Part shown: positions 11,682 through 59,881 of the stretch, piece after piece
Layout of the letters: each line of letters opens with the position of its first letter
Numbering within the stretch: the first letter of the stretch is position 1
Source of the DNA: a virus
Lineage: Duplodnaviria; Caudoviricetes
IMG/VR virus record: IMGVR_UViG_3300027708_000013
DNA length: 64,000 bases
Direction: 5' to 3' (one strand)
The notes under the pieces: generated by a model
What the model was told of the DNA's origin: nothing
Database searches by the model: none
What the model saw: only the letters and a program-made list of their open reading frames with translations
Position numbers and translations under genes: made by a program

Positions 11682-11931
11682 CTTTTAATTTTCGTACACC
11701 ACGTATAAATTTATTGGGATCTTGACTGCGTATGCTGTTTAACAAGCGATTTTCCAACTGCTGTGCTGTGTCACTATCATAGTTTTCACGAATATAATTT
11801 AGTAGATTGATGGCACTGGTGATAACATTGTTGGCACGGCTTTCTACGAGATTTTCTTTATCTCGATGCACCAACATAGTGTCTAATTCATCTAAAATAC
11901 TACGGGCTCGCTTTTGCAAGATTTGCTCCAA
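11662..11931 (-). CDS. Conserved phage hypothetical protein
   Basis: ORF track; late motif ATAAATA upstream. Confidence 0.6.
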   Translation of the reverse strand: MEQILQKRARSILDELDTMLVHRDKENLVESRANNVITSAINLLNYIRENYDSDTAQQLENRLLNSIRSQDPNKFIRGVRKLKGENRED

Positions 11932-11970
11932 TTTATGTTATATTTATATGGATTTAAAGTAATAAAGGTT

Positions 11971-12657
11971 TTAAAAATTTATAACATTTTCCCAGAGTTG
12001 TACACGGTCTGCATCGTAAGGTATCCATAATTGTGTTTCTATTCTGGTTTTAAGTTCACGAACTTTTACAATGTTGGGTTGTATTGGCATTAATGGTAGT
12101 ATTTTTTCTTCAACATAAGACATGTGTACAATTGGTGATGGTTGAATTTCATTTTGTCGAACATCTTTAAATCTAGGCTGGCGAGAGTATATTTCCATAT
12201 CAACTGTTGAGAAAAATATAGATTGATTTTTTAGCAAATTTAATAACAAATACTTGTAATTAGTTGTTCTTAATTCTGATTGTTTTGTTTGTATATAATG
12301 TGTGTGATAGTGCTGTATATCTTTTTGTTTACTAGCACTACTAATCCACCAGCGGTGGTTGTTTAAATCAACAGTATTAAAATAGTAAACAGGGTCTGTT
12401 TTTATAAGCTCATCCCAAGAATTATCTTGCAATAATTTATCAAATCTATTAGGGTGTGCCCATTGTACCAAAAAGAATGCTACGGGATTTTCCTTATGTG
12501 CTTCGATTACCGCCGAGGTTATAAACTCGTTACCGGCTCCAATAGCTCCAAAATTTTTATTTTCTATATCGTTGTACAATGCCGCAACTATAGCAGGCCA
12601 CTCAGGCCATATATGATTAGCAGCATAACCGTCACCAAAACAAAAAATTTTATTCAT
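11971..12657 (-). CDS. Hypothetical protein, SGNH-hydrolase-like N-terminus
   Basis: IFCFGDGY and NFGAIGAGNEFI resemble SGNH blocks I and II. Confidence 0.4.
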   Translation of the reverse strand: MNKIFCFGDGYAANHIWPEWPAIVAALYNDIENKNFGAIGAGNEFITSAVIEAHKENPVAFFLVQWAHPNRFDKLLQDNSWDELIKTDPVYYFNTVDLNNHRWWISSASKQKDIQHYHTHYIQTKQSELRTTNYKYLLLNLLKNQSIFFSTVDMEIYSRQPRFKDVRQNEIQPSPIVHMSYVEEKILPLMPIQPNIVKVRELKTRIETQLWIPYDADRVQLWENVINF

Positions 12658-49077: not shown

Positions 49078-50388
49078 ATGCAAAAAATCGAACACACTTC
49101 CCATGCTGGTATTAATTTTGAACCTAACAAAAAATTAGGTTATTACCTAGTGGGTAATGGCATTTACTACAACAAAATACAAGCACTGATAGAGGCATCA
49201 AAGAAAAACTTAAAAGTCAAATGGTTTTTTAACGAAGATGTATTTGTTAAATATCCCTGGCACATAGAACCCGAAGAAAGCCTGCGTGAATTATATCGTC
49301 AACGTGCTCAACAACTCCGAGACCAATACGACTACATTAGATTAGAGCTCAGTGGCGGGTCAGACAGTACCACTGTGGCCTATAGCTTTTTACTTAATAA
49401 TATACATTTAGATGAGGTGGTGTTTCGATATCCCAAGACCGGCGAACGAGGTGTAACAGGAGATCCGTCCAATACTCGAACCGAAAACACACTGAGCGAG
49501 TGGGAATTTGCAGCAAAGCCCTTGTTAAATTGGATTGCTACCAATTATCCCAAAACAAAAATCACAGTACACGACTACAGTGAAGATATGATTGCCGAAG
49601 CCGACACTAAGGATGAATCATGGATTTTTCGAACTCGACATTATTTACAACCCGGGCACATACATAAATTTGACGATCGCCATATATTAAAACATCGGCG
49701 TCAAATTGATCGCACCAATAAAATGTGTTTATTGTATGGTGTTGATAAACCCAAAATTTTTATCAAAGACAATAAATTCTTTTTTTACTTTCAGGACGGA
49801 CTTGCCAGTTACACCAACGAAATTGCGGCAGAAACATCTGGTGTTGTGAATGAATTCTTTTACTGGGCACCAGAATGTACCAAATTAATAGCCAAACAAG
49901 CACACGAAGTAAAACGTTGGTTCGCGATGCCTCAAAATTATCAATTTATGTCAAGCACGTTACAATGGCCCAACGACGATTTTGCCAAACGTACTTTATA
50001 TGAATCGTTAGTAAAACGTATTGTGTATCCCGATTACGATTTTCATACCTTTCAAACTGCAAAGCCCACTAACAATATATACAACGAAATGGACCATTGG
50101 TTCCATGTCAATTTTAAAGATACACAATTATACGGTTCGTGGGAGGCCGGGATTGGGTATCTATTAGATAACATTGATTCTCGTTTTATTAGCCAAGACA
50201 TTAGAGGAAGAACAGACAATATAGAAATGTTTAGTAGCATATATTATTATTTTGGTGATGTTGCCATTGACAAAACTATTAGTCCAAATGCTGGTTTTAA
50301 AACTAAATCTGTAATCAAAGAATCCAGAAAAGCATGGCTTGCAAGTCAGTATCGGTATTGCATACACGGAAAAATAATAATTTACTAA
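49078..50388 (+). CDS. PP-loop (adenine nucleotide alpha hydrolase) protein, paralogue 1
   Basis: LELSGGSDS PP-loop; late motif AATAAATA. Confidence 0.75.
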   Translation: MQKIEHTSHAGINFEPNKKLGYYLVGNGIYYNKIQALIEASKKNLKVKWFFNEDVFVKYPWHIEPEESLRELYRQRAQQLRDQYDYIRLELSGGSDSTTVAYSFLLNNIHLDEVVFRYPKTGERGVTGDPSNTRTENTLSEWEFAAKPLLNWIATNYPKTKITVHDYSEDMIAEADTKDESWIFRTRHYLQPGHIHKFDDRHILKHRRQIDRTNKMCLLYGVDKPKIFIKDNKFFFYFQDGLASYTNEIAAETSGVVNEFFYWAPECTKLIAKQAHEVKRWFAMPQNYQFMSSTLQWPNDDFAKRTLYESLVKRIVYPDYDFHTFQTAKPTNNIYNEMDHWFHVNFKDTQLYGSWEAGIGYLLDNIDSRFISQDIRGRTDNIEMFSSIYYYFGDVAIDKTISPNAGFKTKSVIKESRKAWLASQYRYCIHGKIIIY

Positions 50389-50500: not shown

Positions 50501-51787
50501 ATGCAAAAAATTGAACACACCTCCCATGCAGGTTTTACCTATGAGCCTAACAAAAAATTAGGTTATTATCTAGTGGACAAGGAAGTTTACTACAACAAAA
50601 TACAAGCACTGATTGCAGCTTCAAAAAAGAATATACCAATAAGATGGTTTTTTAACGAAGATGTATTTGTTAAATATCCCTGGCACATAGAACCTGAAGA
50701 AAACTTGCGAGAATTATATTGTCGACGTGCTCAACAATTACGTGATCAATACGACTACATTAGATTAGAGCTCAGTGGTGGTGCCGATAGTACCACTGTG
50801 GCCTATAGCTTTTTACTTAATAATATACATTTAGATGAGGTGGTGTTTCGATATCCCAAGACCGGTGACAAAGATGCATCCGGAGATCCGTCTAATACTC
50901 TGACCGAAAACACACTGAGCGAATGGGAGTTTGCGGCAAAGCCCTTGTTAAATTGGATTGCCACCAATTATCCCAAAACAAAAATCACCGTACATGACTA
51001 CAGTGAAGATATGATTACCGACGTCAACACCAAAGATGAATCATGGATTTTTCAAACCAGGCATTATTTACAGCCTAGTCATGCTAACAAATATAAACAT
51101 ATTATTAACAATAAAAATATTGCCGATCAAACACATAAAATGTGTGTAATTTATGGCATAGATAAACCTAAAATATTTGTTAGGGACAATAAAGTTTTTT
51201 TATATTTTTCAGATGGATTAACTAACCACAGTAATCAAGTAGTCGACGAGTATACTAATATTACCAACGAATTTTTTTATTGGACTCCAGATTTTCCCGA
51301 ACTAATAGCTAAACAAGCACACGAAATAAAACGTTGGTTTAGTCTTCCGCATAATCAACAAATGCAGGGAATACTACAATGGCCCAACAATGATGTTGCC
51401 AAACGTACTTTATACGAGTTGTTGGTAAAACGTATTGTGTATCCTGATTACGATTTTCATACATTCCAAACTGCAAAGCCCACCACTAATATATCCTGTA
51501 AAATGGATTATTGGTTTCACATTAATTTTAAAGATACTAAACTATATTCGGTTTGGGAATCTGGAATTAAATATTTTCTAGATAATATAGATACAAAATA
51601 TGTATGTTTAATAAACGGAAACCCAGATGAAATACAGTCATTTCAAAGTCCGTATTACTACATTGGAGATAGTATCATCGAGCAATCTAATAAGGGATTT
51701 AACACAAAATCCATATTGTTAGATCAACATCCAGACTCTACTAAAAAACATAGATATGTTATTAACGGCCAATTGGTAGTTTATTAA
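50501..51787 (+). CDS. PP-loop protein, paralogue 2 (tandem duplicate)
   Basis: LELSGGADS; long near-identical DNA blocks shared with paralogue 1. Confidence 0.75.
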   Translation: MQKIEHTSHAGFTYEPNKKLGYYLVDKEVYYNKIQALIAASKKNIPIRWFFNEDVFVKYPWHIEPEENLRELYCRRAQQLRDQYDYIRLELSGGADSTTVAYSFLLNNIHLDEVVFRYPKTGDKDASGDPSNTLTENTLSEWEFAAKPLLNWIATNYPKTKITVHDYSEDMITDVNTKDESWIFQTRHYLQPSHANKYKHIINNKNIADQTHKMCVIYGIDKPKIFVRDNKVFLYFSDGLTNHSNQVVDEYTNITNEFFYWTPDFPELIAKQAHEIKRWFSLPHNQQMQGILQWPNNDVAKRTLYELLVKRIVYPDYDFHTFQTAKPTTNISCKMDYWFHINFKDTKLYSVWESGIKYFLDNIDTKYVCLINGNPDEIQSFQSPYYYIGDSIIEQSNKGFNTKSILLDQHPDSTKKHRYVINGQLVVY

Positions 51788-51788
51788 C

Positions 51789-51878
51789 TGGCGGAGAGTG
51801 TGAGATTCGAACTCACGATACAGTTGCCCATATGTCTGCTTAGTAGGCAGATGCCATCGTCCACTCGGCCAACTCTCC
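51789..51878 (-). tRNA. tRNA-Ser(ACT)
   Basis: Class II cloverleaf, stem TCTGC/GCAGA, loop CT-ACT-AA, G73, CCA. Confidence 0.85.
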
Positions 51879-51888
51879 TGAAGTTGTT

Positions 51889-52092
51889 TTACACTTCTAC
51901 TGTGCCGTTTTGTATGGCCAACAGGGTTGAAATCAATGCATCGCTGTGTTGCAGTTCTGCACGATCTGCTGTTCTTTTATAAAGTGTTCTAGATTGTTGT
52001 GTGGCCGACAATATCATGTCGTATCTATTGCCGCCGGCGATTCTAACACATTTTTCAATATCAATTTCAGTGCCTCTGCTGATTGGTTTCAT
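51889..52092 (-). CDS. RNA polymerase omega subunit (RpoZ)-like protein
   Basis: IEKCVRIAGGNRYDMILSATQQSR...ALISTLLAIQNG resembles the omega NRYxLVL...AL.EI..G pattern; AAGGA RBS. Confidence 0.6.
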   Translation of the reverse strand: MKPISRGTEIDIEKCVRIAGGNRYDMILSATQQSRTLYKRTADRAELQHSDALISTLLAIQNGTVEV

Positions 52093-52118
52093 ACTGTTCC
52101 TTGTTCAAGTTGATTGAA

Positions 52119-52403
52119 GTACAACAGTTTGGGTACATGTATTTGCTTTACAACCGTGGACTGCTTGCCTTTGGAGAGCTACTCCTCTCGGCTTTGCAGA
52201 CAAGTACCACCACCGTGCAAGCGGCTAAATGTCAACAAGTTTCAACAGACTCTCGGACGTTTCCATGGCTTTTAAATTCTGGTGCCGCTTCGGGAATACC
52301 CGATATTGCACAATTTTCGAGCGACTCAAAGTCTTGCAATGCCACGTACTGCGCCTACCACTGGTATCAAACGGGCGTCACCCCTGTACCCAAACTGTTG
52401 TAC
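52119..52403 (-). ncRNA. Unknown multibranched structured RNA (about 285 nt)
   Basis: Perfect 19-bp terminal inverted repeat enclosing several hairpins; strand inferred from context. Confidence 0.6.
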
Positions 52404-52447
52404 TCTAGTTACTAGTGTAACATCTATCGCAATATGTGTCTAGCGTT

Positions 52448-52555
52448 TTTGATGGTTTTTGAGTCGGGAAAACCGTCAAACCCGGTGTCAACAGCCCATC
52501 CCCGGTTTCGTTGACAGCGGATGCTGATTAACAACCTTGCGGTGCGGGGTCAGCA
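52448..52555 (-). ncRNA. Unknown structured RNA with pseudoknot potential
   Basis: Three helices plus complementary loops. Confidence 0.5.
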
Positions 52556-52561
52556 ACAACT

Positions 52562-52636
52562 TGGTGGGCCAGGAAAGAATTGAACTTTCACTCCTTCGGT
52601 TATGAGCCGAACGCTTTACCATTAAGCTACTAGCCC
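52562..52636 (-). tRNA. tRNA(CAT), probably Ile2 (lysidine type)
   Basis: Loop CT-CAT-AA, GGGCTAG acceptor, A73, CCA. Confidence 0.8.
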
Positions 52637-52642
52637 GTTCGA

Positions 52643-53248
52643 TTACATTGCAGGACCGTTTCCGGACTTAAAACCTACACTACCACCCTCTGCTTCAATG
52701 CGAGCAATAACATCTTCAAACAAGATAGGAGCAAAGTCTGGAAGTTGTTCTACGCAAACGCAGTGGTATCTAACATCAATCTCATCGCTGTACAGAATTT
52801 CTCCTGTTCTAGCATCAATACCACGTGGTTTCATAACACGATTTGCGTGAGTATGTCCGTGAATGTTAACTCCGAATCGACCTAAACTATCACTGTGCAA
52901 CGGAATATGACTGAGAATCATCCCGTCCATCACATGGTAGGCACGTAATTCTCTAAAGTACTGTCTGTACTCGTCGTCCCTAAAGATATCATGGTTACCG
53001 CGGATCAACACCTTGTCACCGTTGAGTCTAGCCAATGTGGCCAATGCCCGACGGTTGATGACTACATCGCCCAAGTGATAAATCTTATCTGTGGGCTTAA
53101 CTCTTTCGTTCCAAGACTTGACCATGGCTTCGTCCATTTCATCTGGATCAGTCCAAGGACGCAGTTTTGTGACACCATCGTTACGTGTGAAGCGACATAC
53201 ACCTGCGTGTCCAAAGTGTGTATCGCTGACTAAAAATACTGCGGGCAT
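52643..53248 (-). CDS. Calcineurin-like metallophosphoesterase
   Basis: SDTHFGH, HLGDV, RGNHD, HGHTH; AAGGAG RBS; promoter TTGACC-17-TATAAT at 53271-53299. Confidence 0.88.
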   Translation of the reverse strand: MPAVFLVSDTHFGHAGVCRFTRNDGVTKLRPWTDPDEMDEAMVKSWNERVKPTDKIYHLGDVVINRRALATLARLNGDKVLIRGNHDIFRDDEYRQYFRELRAYHVMDGMILSHIPLHSDSLGRFGVNIHGHTHANRVMKPRGIDARTGEILYSDEIDVRYHCVCVEQLPDFAPILFEDVIARIEAEGGSVGFKSGNGPAM

Positions 53249-53301
53249 ATTCAACTCCTTTCTTTACAATATTATAACATGTTTGTGATTGCGGGTCAAT
53301 G

Positions 53302-54556: not shown

Positions 54557-54657
54557 ACTATATTGAAACACACTGTTGAGATTTCACTTTTCAAGTCAGG
54601 GTCCGGATGACCAAGCGCCGCTTCTCGCAGGTAGAAAACAATGTGCTTCAATATAGT
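54557..54657 (-). ncRNA. Long-stem RNA element with AGTGAAATC motif
   Basis: About 20-bp closing stem CTATATTGAAGCACATTGTT/AACAGTGTGTTTCAATATAG plus two inner hairpins. Confidence 0.55.
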
Positions 54658-54800: not shown

Positions 54801-54921
54801 CATATTAAAACTATATCAATATCTTCCTTCTCTGACAAGAAGGCGTTTCGCAGTGTGTCAGCACCACCGAATGTTGACTCCGATCAGGAGTATGGCACCC
54901 GTCGATATAATTTTAATATAG
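54801..54921 (-). ncRNA. Long-stem RNA element
   Basis: Imperfect 20-bp inverted repeat enclosing hairpins CTCCTGATCGGAG and CCTTCTTGTCAGAGAAGG. Confidence 0.45.
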
Positions 54922-56662: not shown

Positions 56663-56716
56663 ATAACACACTCCGCCACGGCGATTTCACTCCCACCTGG
56701 TTCCAGAATGTGTATA
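56663..56716 (-). ncRNA. Hairpin element with AGTGAAATC motif
   Basis: ACACATTCTG/CGGAGTGTGT stem; related to 54557-54657. Confidence 0.45.
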
Positions 56717-56810
56717 GTCGAACACTCGGGAGTGAGACTTGCACTCACACAGCAGGCTCTCATCGTCCCGCATCCTAGCATTAGATCATCCCAAATGCTC
56801 GACTATATAC
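56712..56810 (-). ncRNA. Pseudo-tRNA cloverleaf on an extended stem
   Basis: Cloverleaf 56725-56795 with T-loop TGCAAGT and 10-nt anticodon loop; acceptor extended by AGTCGAGCA/TGTTCGACT. Confidence 0.5.
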
Positions 56811-58969: not shown

Positions 58970-59881
58970 TTATTTTAAAACAATTTCAGATGTAATTTGT
59001 TTCCAAATAAAATTTTGTTTATTAAACCATGGCTGTATGCGGTCGTCACTCATCTGATTGAGAGACTGACAACGATGGGCAAAATATGCCTTATCCAGTG
59101 CAGGACTACGTCCGGCTTTTACCAAAATATCACGCCATTCTTTTGCCTTTTTGGCCGGCACCTGATTGGAGATGACCAGGTGCGATGGTGCATTCATTTG
59201 GCTTAGTATTTTTGGAAATCCATTACTGACTAGTGTTGGAATTTTATCAATGGCTTTTTCGCCGGTGATGCCTAGGTTATACAATTTATTTTTTTCTTCT
59301 GTGGCAGTTACATATTGTTCGCTGTCACCTATAAAAGCCACTGAGAAATCCGTAGTGCCACTCAGCGTTGCTAAAACAGCATCAGTTGTACTTTTAAAAG
59401 GAACCACAATCATATTGGGATATTTTTTAGCAACCTCGGTGGCCACTAAGTGAGTGGTAATACCCAGTCCACTGACAGAGATTGTCAGTGGCCGATCAGT
59501 GGGGACATCTTTCCACGATTTATATTTCTTAGCAAATACACCAAGCGGTGCATCGCAGTCTGGCATCAACTGCTGAAAATCTTCCACACGATGACTTTCG
59601 TTGGGGAAAAAGTTTGGACGAATCCAAAACGCAGAGCTGGTTGCTAAAATGGTATTTGGAGTTTTAGCAACATACTGAGCTGCAATACTAGCACCGGCAC
59701 CAGGTTTGGTATCAAAAATAAATGTGTATTGGTCCTGAATCTTATTTGCTTCTTGTGCCAGTGTGCGACTAAAATTGGCGGCTATATCACTTGGGCTCCA
59801 GCCATATATAATTGTTACTGTTTCTCGGGCGTGAGTGGTTAATGTGAAAGTGGCTAGCAAAATTGCTAAAATTTTTTTCAT
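58970..59881 (-). CDS. Bug/TctC-family periplasmic solute receptor
   Basis: Signal peptide; GWSP...RTLA...DTKPGAGASIA; VPFKSTTDAVLATLSG. Confidence 0.8.
   Translation of the reverse strand: MKKILAILLATFTLTTHARETVTIIYGWSPSDIAANFSRTLAQEANKIQDQYTFIFDTKPGAGASIAAQYVAKTPNTILATSSAFWIRPNFFPNESHRVEDFQQLMPDCDAPLGVFAKKYKSWKDVPTDRPLTISVSGLGITTHLVATEVAKKYPNMIVVPFKSTTDAVLATLSGTTDFSVAFIGDSEQYVTATEEKNKLYNLGITGEKAIDKIPTLVSNGFPKILSQMNAPSHLVISNQVPAKKAKEWRDILVKAGRSPALDKAYFAHRCQSLNQMSDDRIQPWFNKQNFIWKQITSEIVLK

Follow-up and report, generated by a model that had tools for sequence, protein, structure and literature searches.

The question raised by this locus is what is encoded by a short segment of DNA that lies inside the tRNA island of the window, as we call the whole 64,000-nt stretch of phage DNA analysed here, and whose two ends are the arms of a long inverted repeat. 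A preliminary description had proposed an RNA of about 285 nt closed by a perfect 19-bp stem, and a search for that 19-mer returned exactly two occurrences in the window, at 52119-52137 on the plus strand and at 52385-52403 on the minus strand. When as many as three mismatches are tolerated, the chance expectation is 0.03 matches and none of 100 shuffled sequences gave two, indicating that the stem is real and far above chance expectation. It is in fact somewhat longer than first described, with 20 perfect base pairs (52118-52137 / 52385-52404) that become 21 contiguous pairs when a terminal G-U is added (stem P1, 52117-52137 / 52385-52405), and the element spanned by the inverted repeat measures ~289 nt. 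Its folding energy beats that of shuffled sequences on both strands, with z values of -4.5 for the minus strand and -5.5 for the plus strand, and thus gives no guide to the strand from which an RNA would be made. We consider it likely, from the comparative evidence presented below, that the element encodes, on the minus strand and within a phage tRNA expression unit, a non-coding RNA of ~289 nt with multiple helices that belongs to an uncatalogued family.

Relatives of the element were collected by several routes. Loci containing the neighbouring 428-aa gene yielded three syntenic copies with ~74% identity over the element, an invariant 23-mer added locus L097 and a profile search added the distant locus L091. 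The 428-aa gene itself (50501-51787) forms a plus-strand tandem with a paralogue of 436 aa (49078-50388) that is convergent on the tRNA island; these paralogues have no Pfam match and are conserved in relatives with 54-76% identity. The phosphoesterase gene on the other side of the element led to 80 loci in which that gene is conserved and the flanks are non-syntenic and devoid of the element. Finally, a degenerate 21-nt motif covering the central hairpin and its 3' flank, in both forms, was scanned against IMG/VR, JGI metagenomes and 185,579 bacterial and archaeal species genomes. Leaving the hairpin loop as N in the search pattern produced matches that were mostly due to chance, and filtering the motif matches with an nhmmer profile, which scores sequence only and ignores structure, left 45 loci representing 28 distinct full-length sequences. 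All 28 members reside on contigs of uncultured phages, mostly from lakes and up to 357 kb in length, and they fall into two subfamilies at a ratio of 7:21, with subfamily A (~280-290 nt) including the window copy and subfamily B being shorter (~255-270 nt). The family profile aligns to the window copy over profile positions 2-283 (52119-52404, minus strand, E 5e-59) and finds only this one copy of the RNA in the window.

Outside of these contigs the family has a restricted distribution. Neither the window copy nor a subfamily-B member used as blastn queries had a match in 50,697 GenBank phage records, the exact stem 19-mer had no match in IMG/VR, and the 33 motif matches obtained in the 185,579 species genomes were all chance matches by the profile test, leaving no copy in that collection. 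A 345-kb relative that is 94% complete also has no copy detectable by blastn, indicating that the RNA is an accessory component. As judged from these searches, the family is uncatalogued and sporadic among uncultured freshwater jumbo phages. The wider window has the content of a jumbo-phage segment, with genes for GroEL, UvsW- and DnaB-type helicases and sugar modification.

We explored conservation of structure with an alignment of the 28 members (A6), from which RNAalifold derived a consensus of 53 base pairs, 35 of which show compensatory changes. Overall, 96.0% of the alignment cells at these positions are paired as compared to 82.8% in column shuffles, 190 cells are changed on both sides as compared to 52 in shuffles, and none of 500 shuffles matched any observed measure, although many of the sequences are close kin within the two subfamilies so that compensatory cells are not independent and the shuffle control overstates significance. 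Sounder evidence comes from a slide control, where moving the partners by 1-3 columns drops pairing to 37-44%, together with the many pair types that occur per column. Specifically, many columns contain three to five pair types, as exemplified by column pair 46/275 with AU in 11 members, UA in nine, CG in four, GC in two and UG in two. The pairing is also asymmetric with respect to strand, since the consensus pairs read on the minus strand contain 110 G-U cells and only three A-C cells. G-U pairs are mismatches on the plus strand, and this result therefore indicates that selection acts on a minus-strand transcript. The proposal that the element represents a new class of phage non-coding RNA, for which covariation among collected homologues had been named as a check, is thus supported by the 35 of 53 covarying pairs, as well as by the comparison with Rfam described below.

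The consensus fold (Table 1) is built on P1, which is uninterrupted and without bulges over 17-24 contiguous base pairs in 26 of the 28 members. All of the helices that define the family, namely the P1 clamp, P1.1, P2, P3 and P4 as well as the central hairpin, are present in the window copy, and P4 has G-U pairs at two of its positions in 21 of the 28 members. The central hairpin has the family form UCGGR-UAYU-YCCGA followed by RG, with subfamily B adding a GNRA hairpin, and further consensus parts are a conserved A/U-rich single strand and a variable domain that contains one to three hairpins and is closed by P4. When compared with this consensus, the four inner hairpins of the preliminary description have different fates. 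TCGGG-TATT-CCCGA turns out to be better conserved than any other hairpin in the family and covaries, with the stem being CGGG/CCCG in 16 members and CGGA/UCCG in the remaining 12. GAGAG/CTCTC (52174-52189) lies within the variable 3' domain, at a place where the subfamily-A consensus has a predicted hairpin. GACT-TTG-AGTC (52323-52333) is a feature of the window copy that is partly deleted in its nearest relatives, and the AGCGGC/GCCGCT hairpin is not conserved, as AGCGGC pairs instead with GUCGCU in the family consensus (P5). Thus, relative to the first reading, the comparative evidence adds that the RNA is encoded on the minus strand, that the gene has its own predicted promoter and that the native inner pairings are partly different.

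A search for pseudoknots and tertiary pairs by pairwise covariation was swamped by the 7:21 subfamily split and yielded no usable pairs. One loop-loop candidate, between an R in the P1.1 loop and a Y in the central tetraloop, rests on a single event. Most subfamily-B members also contain a self-complementary block, UUUUAAAA, that is single-stranded in the consensus; this palindrome shows no covariation upkeep, and the window version is only UUUAAA.

Table 1. Features of the RNA gene and of its neighbourhood. Coordinates are those of the window unless a locus is given.
Feature	Position	Strand	Details
Metallophosphoesterase gene	52643-53254	-	
Sigma70-type promoter (predicted)	52414-52442	-	-35 TAGACA 52442-52437, 17-nt spacer, -10 TACACT 52419-52414, TG before -10; 9/12 consensus positions
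Structured ncRNA gene, subfamily A (predicted)	52117-52405	-	~289 nt; ends are the outermost P1 pairs; nhmmer family profile
P1 5' arm	52385-52405	-	21 bp with 3' arm; 16/21 P1 pairs compensatory in family
P1 3' arm	52117-52137	-	partner of 5' arm, same basis
P1.1 small hairpin	52373-52384	-	GGG / 6-nt loop / CCC, directly after P1; 96% paired, 2/3 pairs compensatory
P2 and P3 (long-range helices) 5' strands	52358-52372 (P2 52368-52372, P3 52358-52365)	-	pair with 52141-52145 and 52153-52159; 100% and 99% paired
P5 central domain	52284-52325	-	GUCGCU 52320-52325 with AGCGGC 52284-52289; encloses invariant hairpin UCGGG-UAUU-CCCGA (52290-52303)
P4 5' strand	52244-52248	-	with 52161-52165 closes variable 3' domain (52166-52243); 100% paired, 5/5 pairs compensatory
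P2, P3 and P4 3' strands	52141-52165 (52141-52145, 52153-52159, 52161-52165)	-	P3 and P2 separated by a conserved bulge rich in purines
orf67, RNA polymerase omega (RpoZ) homologue	51889-52092	-	starts 25 nt after P1; AAGGA ribosome-binding site 52098-52102
tRNA-Ser(ACU)	51789-51878	-	last gene of inferred transcript; unusual anticodon; directly precedes RNA in subfamily B
DctP-family solute-binding-protein gene	L091:968-1951	-	homologues in L109, L113, L114, L117, L118, L124, L131

All 24 tRNA genes that ARAGORN identified in the window are on the minus strand, and reading in that direction the order is phosphoesterase, tRNA-Met, a conserved motif of ~105 nt, a promoter-like site, the element, orf67 and tRNA-Ser(ACU). 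The window copy therefore has the placement seen in the family at large, on the tRNA strand within the tRNA island and with either a promoter or a tRNA-Ser gene in front. The promoter-like site is the only one returned by a consensus scan of 51700-52700 and alone is not significant; the case for it comes from positional conservation among the relatives, where TTGACA-N17/18-TATAAT is matched at 12 of 12 positions in nine members, ending 5-9 nt ahead of the extracted element, and at 10-11 of 12 in others, with a distance to the element of ~4-11 nt overall. The distance from the promoter to the stem is 6-9 nt. From its position, transcription should initiate at the base that opens the P1 helix, with an inferred start at ~52406. 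In the seven members without a promoter, a tRNA-Ser gene (ACU or GCU) ends 0-5 nt ahead of P1. The ~105-nt motif between tRNA-Met and the promoter (52445-52561, minus strand) is a second structured motif with three hairpins, an invariant CGAAAC.GGGAUGGGCUG and compensatory changes at 12 of 22 predicted pairs in 10 relatives. It has no match in Rfam and occurs at unrelated positions in other phages, indicating that it is an independent element.

Downstream of the RNA the family is variable. Most members are followed at a distance of 1-28 nt by a tRNA gene, which is tRNA-Leu(UAG) in subfamily A and tRNA-Thr(UGU) in subfamily B, and in four loci (L081, L082, L097 and L112) the RNA is located between a consensus promoter and tRNA-Leu. 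The window differs from these four in having an omega-like gene, orf67, after the RNA instead of tRNA-Leu and in having a weaker promoter. In many subfamily-B phages the downstream partner is a DctP-family gene (PF03480, E 1e-32) that begins ~40-70 nt after the RNA, which is odd for a phage; no copy of this gene was found in the window. The window does contain a TctC-family gene (58970-59881, minus strand; PF03401, E 2e-10) for a solute-binding receptor protein of the tripartite tricarboxylate transporter type, and this is a second type of transporter-receptor-like gene in this phage group. The modular position of the RNA and its changing downstream partner argue for a function that is independent of any one neighbour.

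The location of the element directly upstream of an omega-like gene, as noted in the preliminary description, holds true on the minus strand, and the label given to that gene is also borne out by profile searches. The orf67 sequence alone has no match, including in Pfam, and peptide patterns derived from it found nothing in IMG/VR; tblastn on the loci of the relatives did find homologues. A profile of 21 phage orf67 homologues matches solved omega subunits (E 3e-9), and PF01192 is matched by 20 of these 21 homologues, with the window copy of the gene being the most divergent. As there is no predicted terminator between the RNA and orf67, the two are probably co-transcribed. In many relatives, omega homologues are also encoded on the upstream side of the RNA, at a distance of 0.2-2.5 kb, and the genes for omega, tRNA-Ser(ACU) and the RNA thus make up a loose neighbourhood whose order can be permuted. 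Predicted co-expression with the phage tRNAs and the omega homologue points to a role of the RNA in the takeover of stable-RNA metabolism, translation or transcription.

Taken together, the changing downstream partner and the invariant loops and junctions favour a trans-acting RNA over a leader for a single gene, and the RNA is probably a stable species that is cut from tRNA-operon transcripts. Its 5' end would be created either by transcription starting at the first base of P1 or by release through 3' processing of an abutting tRNA-Ser, and its 3' end by cleavage ahead of the next tRNA (by RNase P) or the next gene. P1 would then function as a clamp that blocks exonucleases or that serves as an RNase III-type processing site such as those in rRNA precursors, with the outcome being a stable RNA that may use its conserved loops and junctions to bind a partner, be it a protein, another RNA or a second copy of itself, in trans. 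The duplex of 21 bp in the window, and its range in the family, compares with the ~20 bp or more of uninterrupted pairing expected of an RNase III-type clamp; as a processing site, P1 is assigned by analogy and from its length. The reading of P1 as a clamp that protects ends or that is cut by an RNase III-type enzyme draws on its uninterrupted length and also on similar clamps in the same island, where three cassettes (54557-54657, 54802-54919 and 56710-56810) are closed by inverted repeats of 16-22 bp.

The closest competitor of a trans-acting RNA is a cis-acting leader or processing cassette, in which the fold would serve only the maturation, stability or translation of the downstream gene and would lose all function on being cut off. 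Several aspects of the locus are congruent with such a role, as the RNA is always within a polycistronic unit, the tRNAs abut it closely, the window and many subfamily-B members have a protein gene with a ribosome-binding site right after the RNA, and the other clamp-stem cassettes of the island could be viewed in the same manner. We nevertheless regard this possibility as unlikely given that a cis-regulator usually tracks one gene while this RNA has four kinds of downstream partner, and that ~260-290 nt comprising at least five helices with covariation, hairpins of the GNRA type and single-stranded blocks without variation far exceed what a processing signal needs. A doubtful prospect of about the same weight is that this is a compact RNA of the GOLLD/ROOL kind that acts through its own architecture, which could involve self-assembly (for example through UUUUAAAA), ribozyme activity, or binding, jointly with the omega protein encoded in the island, to the machinery of transcription or translation in the host. 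The presence of the UUUUAAAA palindrome in most subfamily-B members is only a hint of self-assembly. Should the architectural reading be true, the RNA would provide a small, tractable model for the unexplained ornate RNAs of phages.

Distinctly less probable is that the RNA has diverged strongly from a known class, such as RNase P RNA, tmRNA, 6S, Y RNA, GOLLD/ROOL or a group I intron, that covariance models have missed. A terminal stem formed by pairing of the 5' and 3' ends is common to RNase P RNA, tmRNA, 6S and Y RNAs, a location beside tRNAs fits GOLLD and ROOL, and the omega gene next door could hint at an RNA that binds RNA polymerase, such as 6S. When Rfam 15 was used to analyze these sequences, no family matched the window copy at E<=10, the tmRNA, RNase P, 6S, SRP and Y RNA models included; seven other diverse members had no match to the RNA at E<=1. 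The covariance model of GOLLD (RF02032) gave no match in the window at the gathering threshold or at E<=10 within 51850-52700, that of ROOL (RF03087) gave no match to the RNA, no match of the tRNA covariance model overlaps the element, and ARAGORN reported no tmRNA besides its 24 tRNAs. A tRNA-like module of acceptor and T arm is not visible in the sequence. The multi-branched core also does not resemble 6S, which is a rod with a bubble at its centre. That these models do detect true members is evident from the same run, in which a genuine GOLLD RNA with a tRNA inside was scored in L097 at 11725-12186 on the minus strand (RF02032, 201 bits, E 2e-55). Since this GOLLD is in the L097 island together with a member of the new family, the two families are distinct and can coexist. 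A published catalogue of ~10,000 viral structured RNAs (PMC10690425) contains only motifs of 29-151 nt, and the whole ~289-nt RNA is consequently absent from it.

That the repeat is instead a DNA-level element, meaning a MITE, a recombination site or a replication origin, is very improbable. The perfect terminal inverted repeats and the sporadic occurrence at varying positions in related genomes speak for it, and yet the asymmetry of G-U over A-C cells is a one-strand RNA signature that rules out conservation of the repeat only as DNA, the inner helices covary as well, and the promoter is aimed into the element. A MITE in particular was rejected on the basis of the strand-asymmetric G-U pairing, the single window copy and the lack of a flanking direct duplication of a target site. 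A retron msr/msd was also rejected, as the neighbours are tRNAs, the omega homologue, the metallophosphoesterase and the 428/436-aa paralogues and no reverse-transcriptase domain was found by Pfam. The least probable explanation of all is a plus-strand protein gene, for although a 110-codon frame (52083-52415) spans the element and is open across all of it in the window copy and in roughly every second member of subfamily B, neither Pfam nor PHROG matches this frame, which is broken in 12 or more members, shifts between members, would run antisense to the entire tRNA unit, and shows variable columns that are evenly spread over codon positions (49/47/47) with indels that are not multiples of three.

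On the strength of its comparative record, the element is a well-supported, uncatalogued family of phage non-coding RNA that takes its place among the ornate or stable RNAs found in the tRNA islands of phages. In freshwater jumbo phages these islands contain many RNA genes that are uncatalogued, as seen from the second, unlisted ~105-nt motif that adjoins the RNA. Large, intricately folded RNAs with no known function are rare, and past cases, namely GOLLD, ROOL and OLE, have repeatedly led to new biochemistry. The new family is half the size of such RNAs and combines strong covariation with a defined promoter and defined ends (both predicted) in a location beside tRNAs and a phage omega gene, and these properties make it an unusually tractable case for the ornate RNAs of tRNA islands.

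Among known systems, species 1 and 2 of phage T4 (rnaC of 139 nt and rnaD of 119 nt; NC_000866, 70908-71171) resemble the new RNA in being non-tRNA RNAs within a tRNA cluster that are on the tRNA strand and directly abut a tRNA gene. Both are stable RNAs that share their precursor with the tRNAs and are matured from it, and to our knowledge neither has a known function. They differ from the new RNA in being half its size, in lacking a terminal clamp of 20 bp and in having no promoter of their own in front. The predicted fold of rnaC also ends in a GGGUUCGAAUCCC hairpin like the T arm of a tRNA, which the new RNA does not have, and an nhmmer --max search of the T4 tRNA region with the family profile gave no match at E<=10. 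A second likeness, by analogy, is with the RNase III stems that flank the 16S and the 23S rRNA of bacterial rRNA operons, and with those in the early RNAs of phage T7. RNase III needs a duplex of about two helical turns, which the length of P1 fits, and in both cases a long uninterrupted duplex would flank a stable RNA on a polycistronic transcript with tRNAs. In contrast to the rRNA stems, the new stem probably has the transcription start as its first base, in which case it may be an exonuclease block only.

The closest comparison is with GOLLD and ROOL, whose proximity to phage tRNA islands, as stated in the preliminary description, is confirmed by published work that has also described their ornate, covariation-supported folds, with no function or protein partner known. 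GOLLD, ROOL and OLE form RNA-only assemblies, which for GOLLD and ROOL are nanocages. As with GOLLD and ROOL, the new RNA is phage-borne, is located in or beside tRNA islands and is predicted to adopt an elaborate multi-helix fold that is backed by covariation. In contrast to these RNAs, which measure ~600-800 nt or more, it is only 255-290 nt in length and has a long terminal stem of perfect pairing that closes the fold.
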